Positions 1 to 60,995 of a stretch of DNA of 64,000 nucleotides are shown piece after piece. The notes below the pieces were generated by a model that was not told the DNA's origin, made no database searches, and saw only the letters and a list, made by a program, of their open reading frames with translations. Origin of the DNA: Eledone cirrhosa (Eukaryota); contig OZ024740.1 of the NCBI GenBank assembly GCA_964016885.1, positions 335,978,001 to 336,042,000 of the forward strand, read 5' to 3'. How positions within the stretch are numbered: the stretch's first letter is position 1; each line of letters starts with the position of its first letter. The position numbers and the translations under genes are program-made.

Positions 1-404
1 TTGATTATTACCTAATCTAGAGCCTGCAAATATTGTTAGCTATACGATTAAAACATTATGGTAGTTAAGAAATGTGTCCATTATCCTATTTGTAATTGGC
101 AAGAAAATTAATGATACAAAAGCACTTCTCTAAAGTAGAGTAAAATCTGGAATCTGGGGAAACTGGTAATAATTAGTCTAGAGGGGGATTTGTGGAATAG
201 TTCGATGAGTTAAATTACAGTGAGAATTGAGGAATTTGCTTTACGTCTAAGGGAGGAAGAGTAACCTTTTAATGAAGACTTTGTGAGACAGTCTATAAAG
301 ATAGATATAGCATTTGTTAATCTTCAGCATTTTTATGCATTATTTTCCAAGTGATACTTAATTCGTTTCTATGTACAGAAAATGTATTTCTGCAAGATAC
401 GAAT

Positions 405-771
405 AATTGTCTCTACTTTAGGCACAAGGCCAGCAATAACCCAGTGCATTACTGGTACTTTATTTTATCGACCCCGTAAGGATGAAAGGCAAAGTCAACC
501 TCGGCGGGATTTGAACTCAGATCGTAAAGGGACGTAACTATGCTGGAAAGCATGGCGTCCTACCCTCTACTGATACTGCCAATAATGGTTTCTTATATAG
601 GCACAAGGCTAGCAATTTTGGCGGAGGGGAAAATCGATTAAATCGACCCCAGTGCGTGACTGGTACTTTATTTTATCGACCCCGTAAGGATGAAAGGCAA
701 AGTTGACCACGGCGGGATTTGAACTCAGACTGTAAAGGGGCGTAACTCTATGTTTCAAAGCATGACGTCAG
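405..771 (-). mobile_element. Two adjacent tRNA-derived SINE copies (short form ~405-583, long form ~584-771)
   Basis: Reverse complement of the recurrent consensus TGGCAGTATCGG (A box)...GAGTTCAAATCC (B box)-CGCCGAGGTTAACTTTGCCTTTCATCCTTACGGGGTCGATAAAATAAAGTACCAG...GGCCTTGTGCC..AGAAACAATTATT, seen more than 20 times in the window. Confidence 0.9.
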
Positions 772-11417: not shown

Positions 11418-11606
11418 CGGTGACTTGGCAGAATCGTTAGAGGGTCTGATGCCATGCTTTGCAGCATAGCGTTACAGCCCTTTCCATTCTGAGTTCAAAT
11501 CCCGCCGAGTTTAACTTTGCCTTTCATCCTTACAGGGTCGATAAAATAAAGTACCAGTAATGCACTGGGTTATTGCTGGCCTTGTGCCTAAAGTAGAAAC
11601 AATTAT
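11418..11606 (+). mobile_element. tRNA-derived SINE, short form
   Basis: TGGCAGAATCG, GAGTTCAAATCC, core and GTAGAAACAATTA tail. Confidence 0.9.
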
Positions 11607-11971
11607 AAGTATCAAAATAATTCTATCAAAATAAGTATATCGTTCGTAGAAACGGTTTGCCTCGGGAACACGAAATTAAAAACTTTCCTCTGCATCTTTT
11701 CTACCACTACTACTACATCCTCTATACAATGGGGGCGGCTGGCTTTGAGATACCTTACATCAGACACGCTTGACTCACTCATTTCCTCTCCTCTTGTTAC
11801 TCATACTATTCACTCCACCCCCACCGATACTGTAATAACCACTTTATCCAGTCATTCCTCCCTAGAACATCGCCACTCTGGAATCTCTGCTATTGTCAAC
11901 TGTAATAGTTTAAGCAGAACATCAACGACACCAGGGGGTTCCTGAAACTAATGTTTCCACTATATTTAGAT

Positions 11972-18295: not shown

Positions 18296-19172
<877 letters not shown>

Positions 19173-19206
19173 CTTATATGAATATATATATGGATATATA
19201 TATATA

Positions 19207-19267
<61 letters not shown>

Positions 19268-19534
19268 GGAAAAAATGAAACGAAATTTCATTTCCCACTC
19301 TTAGTACGGCTGTTACTTAAATATAAGTAGGTACACGTACATACACATATGTATACAGACGTACAGTAGTATGTATATATATATATATATACATACATGC
19401 ACACATATATATATGTACGTATGGATTCACCGAACATTTATTATAATGCTCGGTGTGTTTGTAAACAAACATCCCGTATTAAGCCGGAGTGTCTAGCAAC
19501 CATCGTTGCTCATTTGTTCAACACTGACAAAGGA

Positions 19535-19577
19535 ACGCTGTACTAGTTTCAAGCTTATTAGCTATCGTCAGCAACGT
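19535..19577 (-). ncRNA. Minimal type I hammerhead (family A), intact
   Basis: ACGUUG-CUGACGA-U-AGCU(AAUA)AGCU-U-GAAA-CUAG-UA-CAGCGU. Confidence 0.85.
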
Positions 19578-19960
19578 ATACCTTCCTGCCAGATTCTTGA
19601 ACGTATATACTTACCTTATGCATATTAACGGCTGAGTAGCCCAATTTGCATATCGCGTGGGTTAATCGGCCGGACACACCGAAAACGATAAACGGAAAAA
19701 ATGAAACGAAATTTCATTTCCCACTCTTAGTACGACTGTTACTTAAATATAAGTAGGTACACGTACATACACATATGTATACATACATACAGTAGTATGT
19801 ATATATATATATATATACATACATGCACACATATATATATGTACGTATGGATTCACCGAACATTTATTATAATGCTCGGTGTGTTTGTAAACAAACATCC
19901 CGTATTAAGCCGGAGTGTCTAGCAACCATGGTTGCTCGTTTGTTCAACACTGACAAAGGA

Positions 19961-20002
19961 ACGCTGACTAGTTTCAAGCTTATTAGCTATCGTCAGCAAC
20001 GT
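19961..20002 (-). ncRNA. Family A hammerhead with a 1-nt deletion at the cleavage site
   Basis: GAAA-CUAG-U-CAGCGU instead of GAAA-CUAG-UA-CAGCGU. Confidence 0.65.
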
Positions 20003-20387
20003 ATACCTTCCTGCCAGATTCTTGAACGTATATACTTACCTTATGCATATTAACGGCTGAGTAGCCCAATTTGCATATCGCGTGGGTTAATCGGCCGGAC
20101 ACACCGAAAACGATAAACGGAAAAAATGAAACGAAATTTCATTTCCCACTCTTAGTACGACTGTTACTTAAATATAAGTAGGTACACGTACATACACATA
20201 TGTATACAGACGTACAGTAGTATGTATATATATATATATATATACATACATGCACACATATATATATGTACGTATGGATTCACCGAACATTTATTATAGT
20301 GCTCGGTGTGTTTGTAAACAAACATCTCGTATTAAACCGTAGTGTCTAGCAACCATCGTTGCTCGTTTGTTCAACACTGACAAAGGA

Positions 20388-20430
20388 ACGCTGTCCTAGT
20401 TTCAAGCTTATTAGCTATCGTCAGCAACGT
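20388..20430 (-). ncRNA. Family A hammerhead with U16.1 mutated (probably inactive)
   Basis: GAAA-CUAG-GA-CAGCGU. Confidence 0.6.
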
Positions 20431-20444
20431 CAGCAGGAAGGTAT

Positions 20445-20487
20445 ACGTTGCTGACGATAGCTAATAAGCTTGAAACTAGTACAGCGT
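20445..20487 (+). ncRNA. Family A hammerhead in the inverted unit, intact
   Basis: ACGTTG CTGACGA TAGCTAATAAGCTT GAAA CTAG TA CAGCGT, read directly on the + strand. Confidence 0.85.
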
Positions 20488-20692
20488 TCCTTTGTCAGTG
20501 TTGAACAAACGAGCAACGATGGTTGCTAGACACTACGGCTTAATACGGGATGTTTGTTTACAAACACACCGAACATTATAATAAATGTTCAGTGAATCCA
20601 TACGTACATATATATATATGTGTGCATGTATGTATATATATATATACATACTACTGTACGTCTGTACACAAATGTGTATGTACGTGTACCTA

Positions 20693-20731
<39 letters not shown>

Positions 20732-20742
20732 ATATAATATAG

Positions 20743-21397
<655 letters not shown>

Positions 21398-22237: not shown

Positions 22238-22790
<553 letters not shown>

Positions 22791-22798
22791 TTATTGTT

Positions 22799-24609
22799 CT
22801 TTGAGTCTCAGTCATTGATGTTATTTAACTAGAAAGTTTGTTGAAATGAATATCCAGCCGCTATCTGCAGCCTCAGATATTCAGGACGTATCGGAGGGTT
22901 CTTGCCGTTCACAGGAAGCGTGTCTTTTAAAGTGTTCCAAAAAGCGGGGCTGGACTAATCATCTTTAACCATCCTTGGAAACTCTTTGAGATAGTACCTA
23001 GTGCACCTATGACAAACGGGATGACCTTGATTTCATGGCAGTTCCAAATCCTTTTAAACTCACACTTTAAATTCTGGTATCGGTTAATTTTTTTCCCTCT
23101 CCTTTTCTTGCACTCTCGTGTCAAATGGGCAGGCTACATCTACAATCAGGCACGATATTTTTTTCTTGTCCAAAACCACTAGGTCAGGCCTATTGTGTTC
23201 TAATTTCTTGTCCGTCTGTATCCTAAAATCCCATAGCAACTTCACCTGATCGTTTTCTATCACCGACTCTGGCTTATGTTCATACCACTTCTCAGAATTT
23301 GGTAAATTGTTTACTTTGCATACATGCCAATGGACCACCCTGCTTATCACATCATATCTCCAGCCTTTATAGTGAGTCTGGGCTAGGTGTTTACACTCGG
23401 ATACAATGTGAGCCACAGTCCCCTCTCTCTAGAGATCCTACACAGTGAGCTAGCCTCCTCCTTGTCAATATGGTGTTTCACCCACTTCGTTTTGAGGGCT
23501 TGCTCTTGAACAGCCATTAGCATTCCTTCTGTAGCTTTTTTAAGGTCTCCTCTTTTTAACCAATTCTATGTCTGTGGATCTCTAAATACCGTTTTTTTAA
23601 AGAAGGTACTATGAAGGGATTTTTCATGAAGGTTGCTCTTCCTCCTTGTTATTTCCTCCTTGGACATCCCCTGGTCTATTGTTCTCTCCTTCAGTACAAT
23701 TTTGAGCATTGGCACCCTACAATATCTGTCAGTCACATACTTGTGCAGGTTGTTTTTCTCCATCTGAACACAGTCCTCTATGCTGATAAGACCTCTTCCA
23801 CCTTCAGATCTCTTTAGGTACAGTCTATCGACATCACTCCTCTTGTGAAACATGTAGATAGTCATTAGCTTCCTACTCTTCCTATCCAATCCTTTTCATT
23901 CCATTTCAGAATTCCCGCACTGTACCTAATAATTGTTTCTACTTTTGGCACAAGGCCTGAAATTATCCCAGTGTATTACTGGTACTTTATTTTATCGACC
24001 CTGTAAGGATGAAAGACATAATAATAGACACAGCTCGAGAATTTACTACACTTATGACATTCCTACTATTTAGATGTGATTTTAGTATGTTCCTTACTCT
24101 CCTTACGTATTAAGATCTTATCAATTCCTTCATTTTTTTGTTCTTGATGTCATCTGCCCCCAGAACACCTAAATATTTGTATCCCTCTTCAGTGTCAATT
24201 TCTTTTATCATCTCACCTGTTGGTACATGGATTCCGTTGCTTCTGATCAATTTACCCCCTCTTCATCACTTGCACTCCACACTTATTTACACCAAATTCC
24301 ATACATATATCATTGCTGAAAATACGGACAGTGTCAACAAGTACATCCAACTCCTTCTCACTCTTCCCAAAGAGAATAAGATCGTCCATGACGAGGAGGT
24401 GGCTGATAGTAACAAGTTGTTTATGTGGAGGTGATAGTAGATTTCCTCAGACACAATGCTTGTTAACAGTTTCCACATTACGGACAGACATGTCATAGGT
24501 CTATAGTTGGTAGCATCATTACCCTTGATTCGGTCTTTCATTACCAGAACTGTGGTACCTTTTGTCAACCACTCTGGTACTTCACCAGACATCAAGTAGT
24601 CATTGAACA
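22799..24609 (-). mobile_element. R4/Dong-clade RLE LINE, 5'-truncated, internally deleted, with a SINE insertion
   Basis: ORF fragments NYRPMTCLSVMWKLLT, DVDRLYLKRSEGGRGL and HNRPDLVV..IVDVACP. About 400 bp of RT is missing relative to the full copy. Confidence 0.9.
23934..24018 (-). mobile_element. 5'-truncated SINE inserted into the R4 LINE with TSD TAATAAT
   Basis: TSD at 23927-23933 and 24019-24025. The uninterrupted site GTACCTAATAATAGACACAG is present in the sibling copy at ~26411. Confidence 0.9.
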
Positions 24610-25265: not shown

Positions 25266-25272
25266 GTTATTA

Positions 25273-26640
25273 CTCTTTGAGTGTCAGTCATTGATGTTAG
25301 TTAACTGGAAAGTTTGTTGAGATGAATATCAAGCCACTACCTGCAGCCTCAGATATTCAGGACGTATCGGAGGGTTCTTGCTGTTCCCAGCAAGCATGCC
25401 TTTTGAAGCGTTCCAAAAAGCGTGAAGGGGCCAATTTTCTTTAACCATCCCTGGAAACTTTTTGAGATAGTCCCTAGTGCGGCTATGACAATCGGGATCA
25501 CTTTGACTTCATGGCAGTTCCAAATCCTTTTTACCTCCCACTTTAAGTCCTGGTATCGGTTAATTTTCTCCCTCTCCTTCTCTTGCACTCTCGTGTCGAA
25601 TGGGCAGGCCACATCCACAATCAGGCACGAACTTTTTTCTTTGTCCAAAACCACCAAGTCAGGTCTATTGTGTTCAAGTTTCTTGTCCGTCTGTATCCTA
25701 AAATCCCACAGCACCTTCACCTGATCGTTTTCTGTCACCGCCTCTGGCTTATGCTCATACCACTACTCAGAATGTGGTAAATTGTTTACTTTGCATAGGT
25801 GCCAGTGGATCACCCTGCCCATCACATCATGTCTCCAGCCCTTATAGTGAGTCTGGGCTAGGTGTTTACACTCGGATACAATGTGAGCCACAGTAGCCTC
25901 TCTCTCTCCACAGATCCTGCATAGTGGGCTAGCCACCTCCTTGTAAATGTGGTGTTTCAACCACTTCGTTTTGAGGGCCTGCAACTACGCAGCCATTAGC
26001 ATTCCTTCTGTAGTTTTTTTAAGGTCTCCTCTCTTCAACCAGTTCCATGTCTGTGGATCTCTAAATTCAGTTTTCTCAAAGAAGGTACTATGAAGGGATT
26101 TTTCCTGAAGGCTGCTCTTTCTCCTTGATGTTATTTACTCCTTGGACATCTCCTGGCCTATTGTCCCCTCCTTCAGTACAGCTCTGAGCATTGGCTCCTT
26201 ACTATCAGTCACGTATTTGTGTAGGTTGTTTTTCTCCATCTGAACACAGTCCTCTATGCTGATAAGACCTCTTCCACCCTCAGATCTCCTTAAGTAGAGT
26301 CTATCGACATCACTGCTCTTGTGGAACATATTGTAGATAGTCAATAGCTTCCTAGTCTTCCTATCTATTTCTTTTTGTTCAGCAACATTCCATCTCAGAA
26401 TTCCCGCACTGTACCTAATAATAGACACAGCTCGGGAATTTACTGCACTTATGGCATTCCTACTGTTCAGATGTGACTTTAATACGCTCCTTACTCTCCG
26501 AAGGTATTCAGTTCTTATCAATTCCTTCATTTTTTTGTTCTTGATGTCATCAGCCTCCAGAATGCCCAAATACTTGTATCCTTCGTCAGAGTCAATTTCG
26601 TTTATCATCTCACCTGTTGGTATCTGGATTCCGTTACTTC
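25273..26640 (-). mobile_element. R4/Dong-clade RLE LINE, 5'-truncated
   Basis: ORFs 26135-26608, 25763-25984 and 25349-25738 contain the CCHC knuckle, RHD and PD..D motifs. TAA-type tracts at both ends. Confidence 0.92.
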
Positions 26641-31941: not shown

Positions 31942-32780
31942 TATAAATGGAAAAAATGAAACGAAATTTCATTTCTCACTCACACTTAGTACGGCTGTTA
32001 CTTAAATATAAGTATGTATACGTACATACATATATGTATACAGACGTACAGTGGTGTGTATATATATACATACATGCACACATATATATATATGTACGTA
32101 TGGATTCACCGAACATTTATTATAATGCTCGGTTTGTTTGTAAACAAACATCCCGAATTAATCAGTACAGTGTTTGGCAACCATCGTTGCCCTTTTGTTC
32201 AACACTGAAAAAGGAACGATGTACTAGTTTCAAGCTTATTAGCTATCGTCAGCACCGTATACCTTCCTAACTTTCAATCATCTGGCAGGAAGGTATACGG
32301 TATACTATTGTACGTTTGTATACATATATGTATGTACGTATACATACTTATATTTAAGTAACAGCCGTACTAAGTGTGAGTGAGAAATGAAATTTCGTTT
32401 CATTTTTTCCATTTATCGTTTTCGGTGCGCCCGACCGATTAACTCACTCGATATGCAAATTAGGCGGCTCAGCCGTTAATATGCATAAGGAAAGTATATA
32501 CTTTCAGACGTTCAATCATCTTGCAGGAAGGTATACGGTGCTGTCGATAGCTAATAAGCTTGAAACTAGTACATCGTTCCTTTGTCAGTGTTGAACAAAA
32601 GGGCAACGATGGTTGCTAAACACTGAACGACTTAATTCAGGATGTTTGTTTACAAACAAACCGAGCATTATATTAAATATTCGGTGAATCTATACGTACA
32701 TATACATATGTGTGCATGTATGTATATATATATACATACTACTGTACGTCTGTATACATATGTGTACGTATACATACTTA
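31942..32780. mobile_element. Family A hammerhead repeat, second locus, with fold-back
   Basis: Forward partial unit to ~32268, then inverted sequence. Hammerheads at 32216-32258 (-, intact) and 32535-32577 (+, core CUGUCGA mutated). Confidence 0.88.
32216..32258 (-). ncRNA. Family A hammerhead, intact, variant stem I
   Basis: ACGGUG-CUGACGA-UAGCUAAUAAGCUU-GAAA-CUAG-UA-CAUCGU. Confidence 0.85.
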
Positions 32781-32835
32781 TATATATATATATATATATA
32801 TAAATATCCGTCAACCACATACAGATATATATATA

Positions 32836-32918: not shown

Positions 32919-33002
32919 ATGCTGTTGACGGTTGAGAGAAAGGAGTCCTCAATACCGAAGCACAGTTTTGATTTTCATTTTATTAAGGCTAAAAAGAGAG
33001 TC

Positions 33003-33047
33003 TTGTTAATCTGGACTTTCACCTGTTTATCACAAGGTCATCAGACA
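33003..33047 (-). ncRNA. Hammerhead-like motif with an adjacent 17-bp fold-back
   Basis: UGU-CUGAUGA-C-CUUGU(GAUAA)ACAGG-U-GAAA-GUCCAGAU-UA-ACA. Perfect inverted repeat TTCACCTGTTTATCACA/TGTGATAAACAGGTGAA. Confidence 0.55.
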
Positions 33048-34114
33048 TGTGATAAACAGGTGAAGCTCCAAAGTAACAACACACACGTTTTAGCCTTTAT
33101 ATAAATGAAAATATATACATGTGTGTTTAAGTGTATCTATTTATGTTATGCATATATGTATTTCTTTTGGGGTAAATGCATTCGATGTTTAGAGACTTCC
33201 TCACTTAAAAAAGCTTCAATTACAGACATCGCTTGAGATGTATCAATTTTTTGCGATGCATGGTATTATTGGCCATAAGCAAGTCCCTAGCAGGACTAAA
33301 AAGCCAAGTCAGTGATGTTCATGCTTAAGTATCAAGCGATGGCATTACTCGAAATCGTGTTGCAGCTATCATCATCATCATCATCATGTATGTATCTGTC
33401 TATCTAAAGATATCTATCTATACTGGTATGTATTTTAAACATTTTGATACCATGAGTCTAAGCACTTTATCATAGTTTTCTTAGTTTACTATTGATTCTA
33501 TAGCTAAGTTATGCATCATGCCCAAGTGGAAAACGATAGGATATGACAGGTGTATGCATACTAAAAAATATCATCTATTTTATTTTTCTCAATATAGACT
33601 AAATCTGAAAAGTCAATAAAATAGAAATCGAACGTAAATATTTCACAAGTTCATTCAGCTTGAAATATTGGAAAAATCCATCGAACCATAAGCATACATG
33701 CTTTCAGACCCCAGTAATAAAATATAGGGTACGGTATGAACCCGATATATTTGTAAATTTCAATAGCTGGCGGTATCAACACTATTAATAAGGGTGCGGC
33801 TTGAGAATCTTCCGTTTTCCAGACGGGTACGTGCCGGCTTACCCTATGCGCTGTCGGCGATCTCTGTCTCCAACGACCTGCCGACTCGTCCTCGACCACC
33901 CCGCCTGCACGTTAATACCCGCCCTCCGCCTCCGCCGCGTCTTCCGCCGCCGATGCGTGCCGAGTCCGCCGCAGCCAATATTAGGCGTCTAAATCCTTGA
34001 GCAATAACATATAAATATATATTCACATCTTTCTACGTCTCTCTATATATCTCCGTCGGCTTCTCTCACTCTATCAGTCCCCCGTCGCTCCCTCTTTCTC
34101 TCTCTCTATATATA

Positions 34115-34145
<31 letters not shown>

Positions 34146-34573
34146 GTAGTGTATATATATAATGTTTTCCACCGTCTCTTTCAGCTATTTTCCTTCGTGT
34201 CCCCTCTCTAAAGAATCCAAAATATTAAGCACATTAATAACCATCGGAGCGTGAAACTAATTTATATATGTGTGTATGTGCCTGTGTGTATGCGTGTGTG
34301 TGCGTGAATGTATATATATGTGTATGTACATATGTATATATATATAATCGGGCATATGTGTGTGTATATATATATATATATACACACACATATGCCCGAC
34401 TTAGGGCTGAACAACGCACCATCTTACTATTACAGACTTGCACCACCACCCCGGTTTGAACTCCTCACCCTCTCCCTTTAGCCTTCGACTGCCCCCCCCC
34501 CCCCCCCGTCACGTCCCCCTACTAACAATACTAACCTCCACCCACACACACACCTCACCATCCCACTAATAAT

Positions 34574-34760
34574 TGTTTCTACTTTTGGCACAAGGCCAGA
34601 AATTAAACCAGTGTATTACTGGTACTTTATTTTATCGACCCCGTAAGGATGAAAGGCAAAGTTAACCTCGGCGGGATTTGAACCCAGAATGGCAAGGGCC
34701 GTAACTCTATGCGTCAATGCATGGCGTCCGACACTACCGATACTGCCAATCCACCGCCCT
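34574..34760 (-). mobile_element. Full-length short-form SINE with 16-bp TSD
   Basis: TSD CCATCCCACTAATAAT at 34558-34573 and 34761-34776. Confidence 0.95.
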
Positions 34761-35249
34761 CCATCCCACTAATAATACTACTAAATACCGCCCCACCACG
34801 CTACACTTTCCTTCGCCCTTACAACACACACACACGCACACACTCACACCCAAATACGCATACACACACCAGTATATATACACTCACTCACTCGTATGTA
34901 CACATGCACCTTCCCCTCTCCCGTTCCCTCCACCTACAATCACCACTAACCTCTACCCACACATCTACACCTCACCACCCTACTAACACTTCTACTACTA
35001 CTACACCCCACCAACCTTTCCTTCAACATTACCAATCTTCACAAAAACACACGCACTTACACCCTAAACACACACACACATACACCAATATATACACTCA
35101 CTCGCATCGACCTTACCTCCTCACATCTACCCCACACCTTCTGCACATACACATACACATAACTCCATACACACATGCCACTCACACCAACACACACCTG
35201 CCTGTCTACACAGCTACTAACCTCACACACACACACACGCACACAGCAA

Positions 35250-36246
35250 TACTACTAGCCTTTCACTCACCAGTCCTGTTCTGCAGGCTCCACCTCCTCC
35301 CCTCCCTCTCATACATTGCCCTGCCATCATCACCCTCACTACCCTCTCCTCCCACTCCTTTGACTTGACCATCTTGACCTCTTCCTGTTGCGCGCGCCAC
35401 AATAACATCCCACTTCCTCATCGCCATATTTCAACTCAAGAAGAATGAATTTACCACATGGATATCCACGCGATTTTATATCCGGATCTTTACCATCCAC
35501 ATACATACACACCAAACATCCATTCAGAAACTTAGACACACACAAACACTGGCACCATTTTCACACATAGGCATCTACACATTTCACATGAACCCACATC
35601 ACCTACAGACACACCACGCATTCCCCTCTCTTAACCACACAAACACACACACATACACATCTACACATACACCCAAACTCCACCGCACACCGGCTCCGGA
35701 TTTGACATGATCTCATCTCACCCCATCCAACCCTTTCCATCCACACACAGCCACACCTACCCATACAGGGACTTTACACGCACAGACATAAACTTCACTC
35801 CAACCCACACGATGGTTTTTTCAAAACCCACGATCACACACACTCGCTTTCTCCCAGACTCACACACTTATATCCAGGCATACACACACACACTTACATC
35901 TACACAGACATCCTACCTTCCGCCAACACCACTCGGACTCCAATTCCCTTGCTCAACCCCCTTCTCTCTCCCCTTACACACCACCACACTCTTGCTTCCC
36001 GGACCTTCAACCCTGTCATTTTGTAATATTCGGTTTTTTTTTATATATTCCGTTTAATTCTATTTTGATATCATGTTTCATATTTATTGTTATTTCTATT
36101 TTTCCCGTCCTTTCATGTTTTTTCCTGCTATCCCTCTCCCACTCTTTCTCAGAGTTCCTCCGCACCCCACTCTCCCGATGAAGGACTTATGTCCAAAACG
36201 TCATGACCCCCCTCCCCTCATTCTCACCAAGCGTGAAACTAATAAC
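35250..36246 (+). pseudogene. Possible decayed Penelope-like ORF end plus pLTR with degenerate hammerhead
   Basis: Peptide RMNLPHGYPRDFI (~35440-35480) resembles the PLE NGYP..FI motif. Downstream are CCGATGA-A-GGAC(TTAT)GTCC-AAAA-CG-TC (36175-36203) and the GCGTGAAACTAATAAC motif that recurs in the window. Confidence 0.4.
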
Positions 36247-36434
36247 TGTTTCTACTATTGGCACAAGGCCAGCAATAAACCAGTACATTACTGGTACTTT
36301 ATTTTATCGACCCCGTAAGGATGAAAAGGAAAGTTAACCTCGGCGGGATTTGAACTCAGAATGGCAAGGGCCGTAACTCTATGCGTCAAAGCATGGTGTC
36401 CGACCCTCTACCGATACTGCCAATTCACCGCCCT
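36247..36434 (-). mobile_element. Full-length short-form SINE with 15-bp TSD
   Basis: TSD CGTGAAACTAATAAC at 36232-36246 and 36440-36454. Confidence 0.93.
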
Positions 36435-36518
36435 TGAAACGTGAAACTAATAACACTATGTACCATAGTGAACTATATACCATTTTGAACTATACATACA
36501 GATTATTATCATTATTAT

Positions 36519-36950: not shown

Positions 36951-39900
36951 CTTTGAGTCTCAGTCATTGATGTTAGTTAACTGGAAAGTTTGTTGAAATG
37001 AATATCAAGCCACTACCTGCAGCCTCAGATATTCAGGACGTATCGGAGGGTTCTTGCTGTTCCCAGCAAGCATGCCTTTTGAAGCGTTCCAAAAAGCGTG
37101 AAGGGGCCAATTTTCTTTAACCATCCCTGGAAACTTTTTGAGATAGTCCCTAGTGCGCTTATGAAAATCGGGATCACTTTGACTTCATGGCAGTTCCAAA
37201 TCCTTTTTACCTCCCACTTTAAGTCCTGGTATCGGTTAATTTTCTCCCTCTCCTTCTCTTGCACTCTCGTATCGAATGGGCAGGCCACATCCACAATCAG
37301 GCACGATCTTTTTTCTTTGTCCACAACCACCAGGTCAGGTCTATTGTGTTCAAGTTTCTTGTCCGTCTGTATCCTAAAATCCCACAGCACCTTCACCTGA
37401 TGGTTTTCTATCACCGACTCTGGCTTATGCTCATACCACTTCTCAGAATGTGGTAGATTGTTTACTTTGCATAGGTGCCAGTGGATCACCCTGCCCATCA
37501 CATCATGTCTCCAGCCCTTATAGTGAGTCTGGGCTAGGTGTTTACACTCGGATACAATGTGAGCCACAGTCACCTCTCTCTCTCCACAGATCCTGCACAG
37601 TGGGCTAGCCTCCTTGTAAATATGGTGTTTCAACCACTTCGTTTTGAGGGCCTGCTCCTGCGCAGCCAATAACATTCCTTCTGTAGCCTTTTTAAGGTCT
37701 CCTCTTTTCAACCATGTCTGTGGATCTCTAAATTCAGTTTTCTCAAAGAAGGTACTATGAAGGGATTTTTCCTGAAGGCTGCTCTTTCTCCTTGATGTTA
37801 TCTCCTCCTTGGACATCCCCTGGCCTATTGTCCCCTCCTTCAGTACAGTTCTGAGCATTGGTTCCTTACTATCAGTCACGTATTTGTGTAGGTTATTTTT
37901 CTCCATCTGAACACAGTCCTCTATGCTGATAAGACCTCTTCCGCCTTCAGATCTCCTTAAGTAGAGTCTATCGACATCACTCCTCTTGTGGAACATGTTG
38001 TAGATAGTCAATAGCTTCCTAGTCTTCCTATCCATTTCTTTTTGTTCAGCAACATTCCATCTCAGAATTCCAGCACTGTACCTAATAATAGACAGAGCTC
38101 GGGAATTTACTGCACTTATGGCATTCCTACTGTTCAGATGTGACTTTAATACGCTCCTTACGCTCCGAATGTATTCAGTTCTTATCAATTCCTTCATTTT
38201 TTTTGTTCTTGATGTCATCAGCCTCCAGAACACCCAAATACTTGTATCCTTCTTCAGAGTCAATTTCCTTTATCATCTCACCTGTTGGTACCTGGATTCC
38301 GTTACTTCTGCTCAACTTACCCCTCTTCATCACAATGACTCCACACTTACTAATACCAAATTGCATACATATATCATTGCTGAAAATACGGACAGTGTCA
38401 ACAAGCACATCCAACTCCTTCTCACTCTTCCCGAAGAGCTTAAGATCGTCCATGAAGAGGAGGTGATTGATGGTAAGCCCTCCCTTTCCCAACCTATATC
38501 CTGCTCTCACTTTTCGCAGTACACTGATCAGGGGCATCAGGGCAAGGACAAACAACAGAGCGGACAGACTATCTCCCTGGAAGATACCTCTCTTGATCTT
38601 CACGCTTCCCAAGGATTCTCCAGTTGATGTTAACTCTGTTTCCCAGGACTTCATACTTTTGCCCAACAACTGTCTGATGTTATCTGTCACCTTGAAGATC
38701 TCCAGGCTTTTGGTGATCCAAGGATGAGGCACCATGTCAAATGCCTTTTTGTAGTCTATCCATCCCATGGCAAGACCAGTGTGTCTCCTCTTGCAATTCC
38801 TCATTACCATCTTATCAATAAGTAACTGGTCCTTTGTACCACGTGACTTCTTTCGGCATCCTTTCTGTTCGTCCGGTAACAAGTTGTTTGTGTGGAGGTG
38901 ATGGCAGATTTCCTCAGACATAATGCTTGTCAACAGTTTCCACATTACGGACAGACATGTGATAGGTCTATAGTTGGTAACATCATTACCCTTGATTCGG
39001 TCTTTCATTATCAGAACTGTGGTACCTTTTGTCAACCACTCTGCTACCTCACCTGACATCAAGCAGTCATTGAACATGGTTGTCAGTTTCGGGTGGAGGG
39101 ATGTTATATTTTTAATCCAATACCCCTGCACACCATCTGGGCCTGGTGATTTCCAGTTGGTTATTTTTTTGGCCTGCCCCTTAAGAGTTTCAACTGTGAT
39201 ACTCAAGTCAGTTTGTTGGTGTGCCTGTTCACTAATCTCCTTCTGTACTGTCTCAATCCACACTGCCTGGTCATTATATTTAACATCCTGCTCCCATATT
39301 CCCCTCCAGAATGTTTTAGTTTGTTCCGCCTCAGGAATCAAGTCGTTGCCTCTCTCTTTCTCCTCAAGCTGTCCAAACAGCATCTTCTGGTTGTTGTCAA
39401 ACATGCGGTTCTGTCTATACTGACTGACTCTGATCTCGTATCGCCTAATTTTTGCACTCTTTGCTACAATGCGTTGCTTCAGTTCCTCTATGATAATATT
39501 TAGCTTTTTCCTCCTAGTTTTGTACTTTATTTCCAGTCTATTTTTAGTGTCTATGTTTTTTAGTGTCCCATTCAGTAGGGACTCAAGCTTTCCAATGTCA
39601 GTTCTCATTTCCCTGATTTGACCACTCAGTCGTTTCTTCCACCAAGGCTCTGATCTTTCTTGTCTGTTGTTTCCTCTCGCTTTTATACCAAGTAGTTTCC
39701 TCACCGTATTTGCTGTTGCTTTGAGGATATTGTTGCACTGGTGAAGGCTCCTCGCCTCAAGGTATGGGATGACTTTGTTTACCTTAGCTGTTGTTTCTTT
39801 TAACTTTTTCCTGTCTACAAATCTTAGGTTCATAGGTCTCCCACTATCATTATTCAATTCATCTACCACTAAGTTTAGGATATCAACCAAATCTTGTCCT

Positions 39901-40560
39901 AGCCCGTCAGCATTGATCTCCTCAGTGGCCGTATCTCTGTTCCAGGTATTATTTATCTCAGCATTCAGATCATTGTCTGCTTCGGGTGGTTCCTCCGTTC
40001 TCTCGACCTCTTCACCTTCATTTCCCACTGGCTCGTTTGCCTGGCATACTCCACCATCCATCTCCAAGCTAATCTCTCTGCTCAGTTCCTCCAGTTCCAG
40101 CTCCCTTATCCACCCATTAGTTCTTATTACCCGAGCCTGCCTGGCCAATTTTTGTTCATCTAATTTAAATAGACCAATATCGTTCCAGATGTTATGCATC
40201 CGTTTCCTATAGCCTTTCTCCTTGGGGTTACTCTTCAGGTAACATTGCATAACAGTTCTATTCAATTCTTTTGTCCAGTTGGTTCTGGTCCCTTTCCTTC
40301 TTCTTCTTCCTCCGACACCAGCAGTATTTGGTTGACAGCCAGGTCCCTGCTGCTGAGCCAGGGAGCACCTGTTGGGTGAGAGTCTGTCACATGACATTCT
40401 AGTTTCCATTTCACCGTTATTCGAACTGTTTAGGTTCGACATTTAAACACTCTTATCGAGGATTGGCGAATGTATGGTTACATAACCACCCGTGATTTCA
40501 CCACCTCCGGTTATTTCCTCACTCCCGGTGGTTTTTGTGTGGCATTATCACGCTGTAGAC
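36951..40560 (-). mobile_element. Near full-length R4/Dong-clade non-LTR retrotransposon
   Basis: About 120-bp 5'UTR, a single RT-RLE ORF, ~75-bp 3'UTR and an (AAT)n tail. Confidence 0.93.
37025..40442 (-). CDS. RT plus CCHC plus restriction-like endonuclease polyprotein (~1140 aa), one frameshift near 38200
   Basis: RT motifs KSPGPDG, NYRPITCL, IDYKKAFDMV, GIFQGDSLS and LLFMDDLKL. Zinc knuckle CRICGEREVTVAHIVSEC. RLE motifs RHD and RPDLVV..IVDVACP..EKINRY. The frameshift is a T8 run at 38197-38204, versus T7 in the 26530 copy. Confidence 0.9.
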
Positions 40561-42299: not shown

Positions 42300-43486
42300 A
42301 GAAATGCCATAAGCGCAGTAAATTCCCGAGCTGTGTCTATTATTAGGTACAGTGCGGGAATTCTGAGATGGAATGTTGCTGAACAAAAAGAAATGGATAG
42401 GAAGACTAGGAAGCTATTGACTATCTACAACATGTTCCACAAGAGGAGTGATGTCGATAGACTCTACCTAAGGAGATCTGAGGGTGGAAGAGGTCTTATC
42501 AGCATAGAGGACTGTGTTCAGATGGAGAAAAACAACCTATACAAATACGTGACCTATAGTAAGGAGCCAATGCTCAGAACTGTACTGAAGGAGGGGACAG
42601 TAGGCCAGGGGATGTCCAAGGAGGAAATAACATCAAGGAGGAAGAGCAGCCTTAAGGGAAAATCCCTTCATAGTACCTTCTTTGAGAAAACTGAATTTAG
42701 AGATCCACAGACATGGAACTGGTTGAGAAGAGGAGACCTCAAAAAGGCTACAGAAGGAATGCTAATGGCTGCGCAGGAGCAGGCCCTCAAAACGAAGTAG
42801 TTGAAACACCATATTTACAAGGAGGAGGCTAGCCCACTGTGCAGGATCTGTGGAGAGAGAGAGGAGACTGTGGCTCACATTGTGTCCGTGTGTAAACACC
42901 TATCCCAGACCCACTATAAGGGCTGGAGACACGATGTGATGAGCAGGGTGATCCACTGGCACCTGTGCAAAGTAAACAATTTACCACATTCTGAGAAATG
43001 GTATGAGCATAGGCCAGAGGCGGTGATGGAGAACGATCAGGTGAAGGTGCTGTGGGATTTTAGGATACAGACGGACAAAAAACTGGAACACAATAGACCT
43101 GACCTGGTGGTTGTGGACAAAGAAAAAAGATCGTGCCTGATTGTGGATGTGGCCTGCCCGTTCGACACGAGAGTGCAAGAGAAGGAGAGGGAGAAAATTA
43201 ACCGATACCAGGACTTAAAGTGGGAGGTGAAAAGGATTTGGAACTGCCATGAAGTCAAAGTGATCCCGATTGTCATAGGCGCACTGGGGACTATCTCCAA
43301 AAGTTCCCAGGGATGGTTAAAGAAAATCGGCCCCTTCACGCTTTTTGGAACGCTTCAAAAGGCATGCTTGCTTGGAACAGCAAGAACCCTCCGATACGTC
43401 CTGAATATCTGAGGCTGCAGGTAGTGGCTTGATATTCAATCCAACGGACTTTCCAGTTAACCAACATCAATGACTGAGATTCAAGG
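42300..43486 (+). mobile_element. R4/Dong-clade RLE LINE, 5'-truncated, premature stop at 42798-42800
   Basis: ORFs 42333-42800 and 42801-43412 are nearly identical to the full copy. (TAA)n at both ends. Confidence 0.93.
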
Positions 43487-43506
43487 AATAACAACAATAA
43501 TAATAA

Positions 43507-45901: not shown

Positions 45902-46977
45902 TAGGAGGGTGGGGTGAAAAGTTCATAGGCCGACTATGAAGGAGTGATGCTAGGGTTGTGTATTCTCACATGGATTAATAACTGTATTGTCTCTTTCCAG
46001 GGAAACTGACATCTGACTGTTCAAAGAAAATATCAAATGTAACTAGTATTGGGTTCTATTGAAAAAAGACAAAGTTTGGCATCGTACTGTTATCAAGTAC
46101 CTGAAAAAGAGGGGCTTAACCCCCCAAGGACATTCATGATGACATGGTTGCTATAGATGACAAGGGATGTGATGCTCTAGTTGTATCAACATTGCAAAAG
46201 TGGGCAGCTGAAGTTAGTGGGGGGGGGGGGGAGTCTGGACGTTCTGCAACTGGAACCATCGAAAAAAGCGTTGATCGTGTTCACTACATGGTGATGGATG
46301 ACAGGCTTTATAAATAAAATAGCCAATGCTATTAGCATATCCCTGATTTCCTGAACGTTTTCTAACCCTGTATGTGTGTTGAGTTTATCACTTTCAACCT
46401 GACACAAACAGACAATCCATGTAGTGGAAACACCCCTCCTCACCTGCTCCAAAGAAGGCCAATGTGGTTTCAACGACAGGGAAGGTAATGGCTTCAGTTT
46501 TGGGGACACAAAAGGCATTGTATTTATTGACTATCTTCAAAAGTACCACACGATCAATGGAGAGCACTTTGCCAACTTTCTGAGGCAGTTACGAAAGACT
46601 ATTAAGACCAAACGCCCAGGAAAACTGATGAAAGGGGTCTTGTTTCATCAGGACAATGCTCAAGCACACAAGTCCTTGGTTTCAGCGGCTGCTCTGCGTG
46701 ACTGGTTGATCACCCTCGTTATCCTTCTGATTTGTCCCCATCTGACTATCATCTGTTCCCCAACATATACATCACTTGGCTGGAAATTAGTATCACAGTG
46801 ATGAGGAAGTCATATCTGCTGTTGTTGATTCTTTTCAAACAGGATGAAAGCGTCTTCATCAATGGTATCCAAGCACCGCAACTCCGATTAAAGAAGTGTG
46901 TGGACCGCAGGGAGGACTATGTTGAAAAATAAACCTCATTTGGTCACATTCCATGAGAGTATCTTGGTCAGCATATG
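45902..46977 (+). pseudogene. Decayed, internally deleted mariner (DD34D-type) transposon
   Basis: Left TIR-like TAGGAGGGTGGGGTGAAAAGTTCATAGGCCGAC. Peptides KGIVFIDYLQK..TING, VLFHQDNAQAH and HP.YP.DLSPSDYHLFP. Partial right TIR GTCAGCATATG. Confidence 0.85.
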
Positions 46978-47109: not shown

Positions 47110-48304
<1,195 letters not shown>

Positions 48305-49572: not shown

Positions 49573-50003
49573 GGGTTACCTGAACGGAGATGTGCGGACC
49601 ACCTTATGGTGTGTCGGTTGTGAAGCAGATAAAAGGAAGCGCTCAACGACCTGTATAAATGATGCAAGTCGGAGCATTATGACTGAGGACTATCAGTTAT
49701 GATAGCCTGAGCTCTTCAGAGGGCAAAACCTAAAATAAACATTGAAAGTTCATAAGAAACCTTCAAAATTTGAAAAAATTCAATAATTTGCCCGAAGAAA
49801 CAACACCACGTGTTCAGTCTCATGAAAAGTAAATCTTTTGGGGGGAAATTATTGGCTTTTTCCAAATTTAAAGGTTTCTTAGGAATTTTCAATGTTTATT
49901 TTAGGTTTTTCCGTCTAAAGAGCTCAGGCTATCATAACTGATAGCCCTCAGTGGAATATGTATAACAGAGTTTTAAATAAACCTGAATACGGCCTCCGAT
50001 CTG
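49573..50003. mobile_element. Family B hammerhead fold-back element, second locus
   Basis: Arms at ~49682-49782 and ~49851-49952. Motif CCGT-CTAAAGA-GCTCAGGCTATCATAACTGATAGCCCTCAGT-GGAA-TATGTA-TA-ACAG (core decayed). Confidence 0.7.
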
Positions 50004-50389
50004 TTATTAATATATATATATGCGTATGTATGTGTGTTTTTGTATTTTTGTATGCGCTGTACCCATTCGAATGTAAGTGTGTATCTAAGTGTGTGGAAAA
50101 CTGAAAGAACACGGCACTGCCGTTGCTGCTCTCTGCTGCTAATGATGATGATGTTAATGACGACGATGTTAATGATGATGATGTTAATGATGATGATGGT
50201 GATGATGATATGTAAACAATATCAACCCACTATATCTGTTAGTATCGCATCAAGTTGTAAAACTTTTTATATCCAACAAAAAACAAATATTTTCTATAAT
50301 TAATCATAGCAAATAATGTCAATCTTATTGGTAGACACTGGGCAATAGTTCCACCACCAACACCACCTTCACGTCTACAGATATATAAT

Positions 50390-50614
50390 TGTTTCTACTT
50401 TAGGCACAAGGCCAGCAATTACCCAGTGAATTACTGGTACTTTATTTTATCGACCCCGTAAGGATGAAAGGCAAAGTCAACCTCGGCGGGATTTGAACTC
50501 AGATCGTAAAGGGACGTAACTATGTTGGAAAGCATGGCGTCCGACCCTCTACCGATACTGCCAATCCACCACCCAGAAATGAGTTATCTGGCCAGTATGG
50601 GGCTCGAACCCACG
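50390..50614 (-). mobile_element. Chimeric retrocopy: tRNA 3' fragment, 14-nt spacer and full SINE within one 12-bp TSD
   Basis: TSD CAGATATATAAT at 50378-50389 and 50615-50626. Confidence 0.85.
50589..50614 (-). pseudogene. tRNA 3' fragment (T-arm plus acceptor strand), tRNA-Ile(AAT)-like
   Basis: C-GTGGG-TTCGAGC-CCCAT-ACTGGCC-A: T stem-loop, then an acceptor strand complementary to the GGCC(A/G)GT 5' end typical of eukaryotic tRNA-Ile(AAT). Confidence 0.7.
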
Positions 50615-53294: not shown

Positions 53295-53410
53295 ATTATA
53301 ATAAATGTTCGGTGAATCCATACGTACATATATGTGTGTGCATGTATGTATATATATATACATACTACTGTACGTCTGTATACATATATGTATGTACGTA
53401 TACATACTTA
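53295..53410 (-). repeat. Family A fragment without the ribozyme
   Basis: ATAATAAATGTTCGGTGAATCCATACGTAC..CTACTGTACGTCTGTATAC. Confidence 0.85.
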
Positions 53411-55106
53411 TATATATTATATTGTATTACATTATATCATATTACATAACCTCTTACGTATGTTTACATACACACTCATGTATATATGTGTGTATCTGTA
53501 TGTGTGTGTGTGTCTGTGAGTGTTTGTGCGTGTGTGTGTGTGCATGTGTGTGGGTGGGTGTGTGTGTGTGTGTGTACGTGTGTGTGTGGTATATTTTATT
53601 AGCTTTAATATTGGCGTGATTGTAATACTGAACGCATTGTTGATTAACTATAAAAAATCATATTAATTTTGGAATCAATAACAAAGCTAGATACAGATTA
53701 TATGAGACACTTATGGTAGTCTTGTAATATTACACGACTAAGATGGATGTTAGCTAATACTGAATATTTGTAGCAGAGAAGCAAAGTTTCAAAAGCAAAA
53801 TAATAAAGGTTCTTCGTTTTATTGTTGTTGCTCTTATTTTGGTGAAGATAATCAGTCTAAAAATATATATGTAAAAATAAAACAGTAAATGAGCCGGATG
53901 TGTGAGGTGGGGGATTGAGGGGATATTCAACATGCTACTTCCGAGGTGAAGATAACTTTGTAGCAACTTTAGAAAAGTCAAATTGAGGAACTTAAATGCA
54001 TTATTCAGTGGCTCATTGACAATGATGTAGCAGCAGCACCGTTTCCGATATGCAAGTATTATGCCATTGTGAGCCTTACTTGGGTTTTGTAAAATGTCCT
54101 CAACTGTTCGGCGCTGAAGTACTTTATCAACAGGGATTTCGTAACTTAGCATTTGAAGTGACTTTGAGGGTCTAAATGCTTGTTGTTAAAGTCTAGAGAG
54201 GCTGAAATTCGCTATTGTTTCTGTATTTCAATAATAGTATATTCCTGTTATTGAATGTGAAGAGTTGTATTATCGGCATAGAAATGAATGACGTTAGAGT
54301 TAACAGCAGGTATGTTTCTAATGTGATAATGCAATCGTGAAAATGAGGTGGGAATGCATAATTGAAACCTAGACTACACTAAAGCTGAAAAGTGTAAATT
54401 ACGTAGAGACACGCCAGCGTACACAGTGATAGTATCGTCTTACACTGGTGAAAATCGGGTATGAAATTTAACCAGCAGATCTCATGCCACGTACAGTCTA
54501 GTATTTTGCTGATTTCGAGTGAATTAATATTGCTTTCTTGATAGGCAGGAGCATTGATGAGTGTCACGGGATATTATGATCGATAGATGAGCAGAGGCGA
54601 GATTCTGAAGTAGTTGGTGAAGACGATTCTTAACAATTGTTTCGAATAACGTTCGAGTTGTTAATTAATACGATCGTTGACAGAGTTAGAGTGGATTTGG
54701 AGATGGTTGAAAGAGGTTACGGGTCTGTGAATTGCGAACCACAAATATATGTTTTCAAATATCATAACTGATCCCTATAGCGAGAAAAATATTAAAAAGT
54801 TTAACTAATATAAGGAGCTAGCTCGTTTATCAGAGAGAAAGGGGATATTTTCAAGATTAGTGGCCTCGCTGGCTATGAGTAACTGGACTTTTTTTCGCAC
54901 TTGGCATATGTGTGTTTATGTGTGTGAGTCTTACGAAGATGAGAACGGCAATGTGACGTTGAATAGCAATTAAAATTCTAATTTTAAACTAGAAAGTAGC
55001 CGAGATTAAAACAAGTAGTAGCGAGTAATCTTGAAGGGTAAGGTAATGTAATCCAATACTTGTAGCTCTATCCGGCAACGACTAAAATGTATGCAGATGA
55101 CATGAT

Positions 55107-60642: not shown

Positions 60643-60988
60643 ATATAAGTTAAAACAATGAAATCAAAATTCAAGTCATTAGGAATATACTTCACTGCTT
60701 TACGATCGTTTCTAGGTGATAATAATACATCGTACGCATATTTCGTTATCGATCTATGTAACGTTAGTTACAAAATATCAAATAAGGAATATATTTACCT
60801 ACGTGTATATCTTCAGCATTGCTGACGATATACACGTAGGTAAATATATTCCTTATTTGATATTTTGTAACTAACGTTACATAGATTAATAATTAAATAT
60901 GCGTACGATGTATTATTATCACCTAGAAACGATCGTAAAGCAGTGAAGTATATTCCTAACGACTTGAATTTTTATTTCATTGTTATAA

Positions 60989-60995
<7 letters not shown>
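60643..60995. repeat. ~175-bp-arm near-perfect palindrome centred at 60819, with hammerhead-like cores on both arms
   Basis: Centre reads TCTTCAGCA-T-TGCTGACGA. Each arm reads CUGAnGA...GAAA-CGAUCG-UA outward. Confidence 0.85.

Follow-up and report, generated by a model that had tools for sequence, protein, structure and literature searches.

Here we describe a ~430-bp tandem repeat carrying hammerhead ribozyme motifs in a 64,000-nucleotide stretch of the Eledone cirrhosa genome, hereafter the window (G000:C1:335978001-336042000, in a 3.0-Gb assembly). The repeat occupies three loci and one further fragment (Table 1), and positions within the unit are numbered from the predicted hammerhead cleavage site. 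Run on the window, Tandem Repeats Finder gave a period of 426 with 2.7 copies and 97% matches at 19262-20430, and a period of 433 with 2.5 copies at 47208-48304, in line with the non-coding tandem units that the original prediction had placed at three loci. The simple head-to-tail layout that it gave them does not hold at 19262 and 31942, where the strand switches at ~20430 and ~32270, so that the arms meet 5'-to-5' and both 3' ends face outward into (TA)n. The base composition around the arrays is 30-33% GC in 2-kb bins, and the longest ATG frames of the unit encode 30-51 amino acids. An AATAAA had been noticed in the unit and lies at position 99; as a poly(A) signal it was rejected, since there is no poly(A) at the 3' ends read. 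The fragment first seen at 53295 is also confirmed. At the first locus, a 56-nt segment that we call the tail is present on the end of the left arm and missing from that of the right.

Table 1. Features of the ~430-bp repeat family in the window (strand "." where none applies).
Feature	Position	Strand	Basis
(TA)n tract, left side of the target	19182..19264	.	sequence, repeat finding
Left arm made of 2.7 tandem ~426-bp units; its 3' end is of the long (L) type, at unit position ~279	19262..20430	-	
56-nt tail (unit 224-279), with a predicted hairpin, between the two 3' ends	19262..19317	-	
Intact type I hammerhead, predicted cleavage between 19541 and 19540	19535..19577	-	
Hammerhead lacking 1 nt at its cleavage triplet (19966), probably inactive	19961..20002	-	
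Hammerhead with GGA replacing GUA (20394), probably inactive; 5' end of the left arm	20388..20430	-	
Head-to-head (5'-to-5') junction, short local duplication or insertion	20425..20436	.	
Right arm, unit 378-426 then 1-223, ending at the short (S) 3' end	20433..20699	+	
Intact hammerhead of the right arm	20445..20487	+	
(TA)n tract, right side of the target	20695..20805	.	
Locus 2, left arm, L end into (TA)n	31943..32270	-	
Locus 2, left arm, intact hammerhead variant with G·U in helix I	~32216-32258	-	
Locus 2, right arm, internal deletion, S end into (TA)n	32271..32785	+	
Locus 3, one arm only, 2.5 units of 433 bp, whose S end runs into (TA)n	47213..48304	-	
5'-truncated fragment, unit 94-223, S end	53295..53416	+	

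The hammerhead string given in the original prediction is present, and the pattern CTGANGAN{1,30}GAAA finds 17 matches in the window against 3.3 expected, 7 of them from the ~430-bp family. The motif at 19535..19577(-) has a helix I of 6 bp, the core CUGACGA, a U·U, a helix II of 4 bp with a 4-nt loop, GAAA, a palindromic helix III, and the triplet GUA. An intact hammerhead in every unit, as had been supposed, is not what the window holds: three of its eight full motifs carry a lesion at a defining base (20394(-), 19966(-) and 32541(+), the last having lost core A6 in the right arm of locus 2), and two have a mismatch in helix I. Two consecutive hammerheads of locus 3 (47424 and 47857) have intact cores with one helix I mismatch each, and the 5' end of that arm falls inside a third. 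Two of the four ribozymes at 19262-20695 are broken and the two intact ones lie on opposite strands, so the release of a monomer by double cleavage is impossible there.

The ribozyme is of type I, with helices I, II and III of 6, 4 and 2 bp, a palindromic helix III preceding GUA, and a U·U at the base of helix II in place of the usual G-C pair. In the accessible part of Cervera & de la Peña 2014 (PMC4209133), the minimal hammerheads of Penelope-like elements (PLEs) have either no helix III, or a vestigial one, or a helix II of 7-8 bp, together with a helix I of 4-5 bp and G10.1-C11.1. Because the helices here are 6, 4 and 2 bp, the canonical sizes of that paper, and U·U stands at 10.1/11.1, the predicted fold is of the canonical metazoan type I size class, not the "minimal" one to which it was first assigned. 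It resembles the minimal PLE hammerheads, as that part of the paper describes them, in type I topology, in palindromic positions around helix III, and in that dimers are expected to work. The axolotl HHR_Amex2 likewise has a helix III of 2 bp and a helix II with U·U at its base, in the portion of Cervera & de la Peña 2020 (PMC7229834) available to us. From the sequence, helix I could carry a bulged extension. Rfam gave no match in the window at gathering score, and none of its 126 weak matches at 19262-20700 is a hammerhead. In this genome, the short-helix-III hammerhead families inspected all have a palindromic helix III, and a loose pattern with U·U under helix II gives 87,145 matches against 283 for the control, from several families.

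Across 116 insertions of the family, core and helices are intact, by the criteria applied, in 144 of 184 motifs, and in 11 of 16 where the loci had been selected independently of the motif. One pair of helix I is U·G in 67 insertions, A-U in 28 and G·U in 14. In an alignment of six hand-picked rows (three of the ~430-bp family, three of other families of this genome), with the structure set by hand, 95.8% of cells are paired, 9 of 12 pairs have changed on both sides, and the pairing score exceeds all 500 shuffles and all slid controls. This covariation of the helices indicates that the ribozyme fold, as aligned, is under selection. Taken by itself, the 71-nt motif is no more stable than its shuffles (z -0.3), and whole units fold well below theirs; the circular fold of the unit reaches z -7.9 and -8.5, or -4.7 and -3.2 without a TA-rich hairpin, figures that are predictions only. 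The palindromic duplex of 6 bp has an energy of -4.8 kcal/mol.

The family was called an abundant retrozyme from the window, and the genomic copy count, the ORF-free arrays and the helix covariation bear this out: an exact 29-nt ribozyme core has 10,718 genome-wide matches with none for the control, placing the family above 10,000 copies. A 21-mer of the tail has 17,487 matches (control 0), and a pattern for the L end joined to TA has 6,888 against 31, among which other families may be included. Its supposed youth holds for a sister subfamily of ~475 bp (L217-L226, G000:C2:176980728-176986366, and L236), whose members are 99-100% identical to one another and ~80% identical to the window unit; it does not hold generally, since within most insertions the average difference from unit to unit is 3-4%, owing chiefly to rare alleles where arrays were inspected, and the window unit has 75-85% identity to other subfamilies. 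The sister subfamily has an expanded internal TA tract whose length differs between otherwise identical units. ORF-free arrays span from 9 to more than 23 units; the smallest of these, a 4.1-kb insertion (L169), holds 9 ORF-free units between two intact ends. The arrays at L167 (G000:C28:43950000-43959999) and L168 (G000:C12:20417000-20426999) are satellite-like with more than 23 units, L168 containing a higher-order repeat with a recurrent deletion, and growth at the DNA level is visible in both and in L055. Contigs of sequence runs, whose kind is unrecorded and which have no bearing on RNA, contain the unit, its variants and the unit-to-unit join.

How the copies end was read at the 30 top-scoring loci, at 60 consecutive core-positive loci on C1, and at 40 more, 26 of them found by the tail motif; six loci were dropped (three re-fetched, one cut and two edge-to-edge arrays), which left 138 insertions. 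The 142 3' ends of the first 100 insertions fall into 62 S ends at ~223, 62 L ends at ~279, and 18 elsewhere. The 3' end described originally, TTTTTTCC(G/A)TTTAT running into (TA)n, is found at 19262 and 31943, and an equally common second end 56 nt upstream of it had been missed. A (TA)4 lies within 30 nt of 109 of the 124 S and L ends, against 4 of the 18 other ends and 11% of random positions; target-site duplications are unreadable because the flanks are (TA)n. Head-to-head structure is present in 66 of the 138 insertions: 48 pair an L with an S end, one is L+L, none is S+S, and 17 have one end unclassified, so that one long and one short end occur together in 48 of 49 classifiable pairs. 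Under a stricter motif test there are 42 L+S pairs, no S+S and no clear L+L, with 24 unclassified. An outer tail-to-tail arrangement was seen in 1 of 100 insertions.

The 68 head-to-head junctions comprise 31 with an overlap of at least 2 nt, 14 that are near blunt, and 23 with insertions. The 5' ends are scattered, with 1 of 186 at the cleavage site, and 14 of 43 arms identified independently of the motif run more than 20 nt beyond that site. A modest excess of 5' ends falls at positions 1-20 (7 against 1.4 expected in the motif-independent set, 10 against 4.1 overall), just 3' of the cleavage site, and could mean that some templates are linear and cleaved, or that stalling occurs at helix I. 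Twin priming of the L1 style, on one linear RNA, was rejected on inspection, as the two arms cover overlapping sequence and have unrelated 5' ends. At four loci (L182 803-3755, L048, L179 and L165), an arm of the family abuts, 5'-to-5' and directly, the truncated arm of another element, three of these elements being PLE-related and one unclassified; these cross-family joins are probably secondary rather than single events, since the ends are L+L or S+S where read, against the within-family rule.

These footprints have close counterparts among PLEs. According to the available parts of Craig 2021 and Arkhipova 2013 (PMC3846280), PLE copies carry a tail on one end only and an inverted, 5'-truncated arm. 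In vitro, as reported in the accessible sections of Frangieh 2024 (PMC11167929), a purified PLE protein cuts and extends both strands, starting at two internal sites that bound the tail. With the endonuclease-bearing (EN+) PLEs, Neptune, Poseidon/Penelope and Naiad, the family shares, as far as the consulted sources describe them, 5'-truncated arms, an adjacent inverted arm, a tail on one end, AT-rich or microsatellite targets, a hammerhead upstream of the ends, and two internal start sites. It differs from them, within the same sources, in having no reverse transcriptase (RT)/GIY-YIG frame between pseudo-LTRs (pLTRs), in arms that are multiples of the ~430-bp unit, and in a tail of 56 nt against 30-40. 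A further difference from the in vitro reactions of PMC11167929, in the sections at hand, is that there the same start sites were used on both strands, whereas the genomic pairs here are almost always L+S. The link to PLEs is stronger than the original prediction could see, because the insertions carry PLE-type ends.

Animal non-LTR retrozymes are an established class, for which expression and circles have been demonstrated, and PLEs have been called a "strong candidate" for their mobiliser, both in the accessible text of PMC7229834. The units match that class, as described in the same text, in being AT-rich tandem repeats (the class spans 150-450 bp) with one type I hammerhead, no ORF, thousands of copies and a self-paired predicted circle, and their size is near that of the mussel family, 350-390 bp. 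The retrozymes of that paper, in the parts at hand, have circles and expression; for the family described here both are predicted. More recently, a PLE origin of animal retrozymes was argued from co-occurrence and pLTR similarity in a preprint that deals mostly with vertebrates and considers unequal crossover as a route to local amplification (Li, Clavereau, Pollet 2026, bioRxiv 10.64898/2026.07.22.740005; available portion). Compared with that portion, the present case offers no pLTR homologue among the families sampled, 150 of 10,597 GIY-YIG candidates having been scored, and integration footprints instead. Tails, two fixed 3' ends and head-to-head pairing are not described in the parts of PMC7229834 available to us, and the words "tail", "head-to-head", "junction" and "target site" are absent from the main text of the preprint (10.64898/2026.07.22.740005). 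Our search of the full-text literature, mostly outside subscription journals, found no description of tails or L+S pairing in retrozymes, and the supplements of PMC7229834 and the preprint may list the family or its junctions. The element itself is not of a new kind, and its integration footprints are unusually clear; mobilisation of retrozymes by PLEs has already been proposed, and the tails and L+S pairing are what is added here.

Taking these observations together, we consider it likely that the ~430-bp repeat is a protein-free non-LTR retrozyme, inserted in trans by the RT/GIY-YIG protein of a PLE, probably on a circular monomer RNA. In such a cycle, arrays would be transcribed, neighbouring ribozymes would pair through the palindromic helix III and cut after GUA, and the released ~430-nt monomer would be circularised. 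Integration adjoins (TA)n, where the PLE protein would cut both strands. The paired ends at ~223 and ~279 would then mark two internal priming sites, one for each DNA end. Copying could proceed by a rolling circle, and the arms of an insertion do derive from one haplotype and often continue across the cleavage site over more than a unit's length. The 5'-to-5' joins, with their variable points and their short overlaps or insertions, would be the work of end-joining repair, and later duplication at the DNA level would enlarge some arrays. More specifically, and tentatively, a PLE protein dimer may cut (TA)n and use a single circular RNA, made by the ribozyme, as template for both DNA ends: each subunit would prime one end at a fixed site different from that of its partner and copy its way round the circle before the two cDNAs are joined head-to-head; we regard this doubly primed, circle-templated form of retrotransposition as plausible, well short of established. 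If it were true, the hammerhead would gain a defined job in the PLE cycle, and one mechanism would cover retrozyme arrays, pLTRs, tails and inverted arms. Both the mode of retrozyme integration and the circle as template are testable here, computationally and by reconstitution, since the genome offers thousands of junctions, a near-strict L+S rule, very young insertions of several units whose two arms carry one haplotype, and Neptune-like ORF elements that obey the same rule.

The alternative that survives best keeps the same element and the same PLE machinery, and takes as template an uncleaved, linear read-through transcript of an array, with the ribozyme incidental or serving only to free RNA ends and with long uniform arrays coming from uniform sources or from later DNA-level expansion. 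In the accessible sections of PMC11167929, PLE insertion in vitro is independent of ribozyme cleavage and uses unprocessed RNA; ribozyme mutants had no effect, and the cleavage site was not the end of any read. Of nine predicted frog retrozyme dimers in the available portion of the preprint (10.64898/2026.07.22.740005), eight failed to cleave in vitro. Mosaic arrays occur too, as in L175 (discordance 0.26) and insertion 14 of the sister subfamily, as do alternating or higher-order repeats, and uniform arrays of at least 10 units exist that could serve as sources. Some templates may indeed be linear, given the pile-up of 5' ends 3' of the cleavage site.

The distribution of variants bears on the template. 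That the two arms of an insertion have one source is seen in 40 insertions, where 25 rare alleles are common to both arms and 310 are unshared (0.63 shared per pair, against 0.064 when the arms come from other loci), and discordance at 26 diagnostic columns is 0.07 within insertions against 0.35-0.39 between them, a control that mixes subfamilies. In the sister subfamily (57 units, 19 insertions), units differ at 1.25 positions within insertions and 4.3 between, in loci that were chosen by similarity and include two that resemble a segmental duplicate and the mosaic already mentioned. One head-to-head insertion of 10+2 units has a single variant base, and private variants recur in all units of both arms in insertions 8, 10 and 18, and along one arm in insertion 4. 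The best test case for rolling-circle copying is an unrelated and very young ribozyme family of 310 bp (L189 3068-7336, L190 5634-8002, L059 529-2978). Its arrays are head-to-head, the largest having ~6+8 near-identical units, and they run into (TA)n at ~139 and ~165; the five insertions in which both ends were read obey the end rule of the ~430-bp family. Comparison of its 29 units, from 7 insertions, gives 0.11 differences within an arm, 0.12 from arm to arm and 3.6 from locus to locus. No two of the 7 insertions have the same haplotype, and those 4 that hold several full units are uniform but for one singleton among the 29. A linear template is disfavoured because new variants of this kind would require a bottleneck of a single unit, and the covariation of the helices, in indicating selection on the ribozyme fold, weighs in the same direction. 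The unit uniformity could partly reflect assembly polishing or gene conversion, and uniform linear sources or growth at the DNA level are a possible alternative cause of it; the simplest account of one haplotype per insertion, found on both multi-unit arms, is that a single monomer, hence a circle, was copied again and again. We accordingly rate a linear template as unlikely, though a contender to be taken seriously.

A second alternative, that the copies are ordinary 5'-truncated pLTR remnants of an autonomous PLE, draws on the fact that the tail, the inverted arm and the TA target are all features of such elements, and that only 150 of the 10,597 GIY-YIG candidates in the genome, among them long RT+GIY-YIG frames, were scored. 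The arms run upstream into another unit, never into coding sequence, and the array of L169 has no ORF between its two intact ends. The search for attached PLE ORFs, proposed from the window, found none: in flank searches with five to seven PLE proteins, no unit at the loci examined is continuous with a PLE ORF, which leaves the "ordinary pLTR" raised at the outset unsupported. In two sets of retrozyme-locus sequences, 10 of 89 and 8 of 40 have PLE protein matches, none of them continuous in sense with the unit, as judged by reading the sequence for L042, L131, L182, L185 and L080 and by strand, distance or an intervening TA tract for the rest. The candidate ORF links in L042 and L131 were rejected as chance neighbours, the PLE ending in its own TA tract first. 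A sensitive blastn search against six PLE and four other ribozyme families gave matches of only 17-22 nt, and no related pLTR was found through the GIY-YIG scan (the 150 scored candidates), long-ORF loci, shared 5' flanks or the sister-subfamily search. We regard this explanation as very improbable and largely refuted already. An equally faint prospect is a satellite or MITE-like repeat that spreads at the DNA level or through LINE machinery and whose hammerhead is chance or vestigial, for although large DNA-level arrays exist (L167 and L168) and LINE-like RT elements share the window, the sense-strand 3' ends are fixed and the 5' ends scattered, there is neither poly(A) nor any fixed terminal inverted repeat, the L+S pairing is common to a PLE, and the ribozyme shows compensatory changes.

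The end rule of the retrozyme recurs in PLEs of the same genome. Elements are called Neptune-like here from a cysteine motif before the endonuclease, by the definition in the available part of Craig 2021. An ORF-bearing Neptune-like element has two 3' ends into (TA)n, and 11 of its 12 pairs are L+S and one S+S; in the 5' copy of the Neptune-like element the tail continues into the ORF. One L+L pair was seen in a further family, and a second RT+GIY-YIG element has a hammerhead of the same U·U subtype. Three Neptune-like loci (L121, L127 and L133) have a U3-A8 core-variant hammerhead in their pLTRs, at 2415-2460 and 7394-7439 in L121, whose open frame is 938 aa long; no solved structure matches the Neptune-like protein.

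Within the window, the same TA tract that receives the first retrozyme locus holds a head-to-head remnant at 20806-21264, with a hammerhead-like motif at 21072-21099(-) and ends resembling the L and S ends of the PLE family in L100 and L182; the ~430-bp retrozyme and PLE-like remnants nest in each other's TA tracts. A non-LTR retrotransposon at 36951-40442(-) has an RT domain (Pfam RVT_1) in a frame of 755 aa and a C-terminal region that we take to resemble a restriction-like endonuclease, with further copies at 22787-24609, 25266-26636 and 42300-43498. About 16 copies of a ~190-bp SINE-like repeat are scattered through the window (396-583, 11418-11614, 34565-34763, 36234-36438, 50364-50574 and others), and a fragment at 46403-46801(-) presumably resembles a mariner-type transposase. 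Short inverted-repeat elements lie at 60648-60990, 49682-49987, 18772-19170 and 32971-33112, and a loose match to the hammerhead pattern falls inside one of them, at 33017-33044(-).
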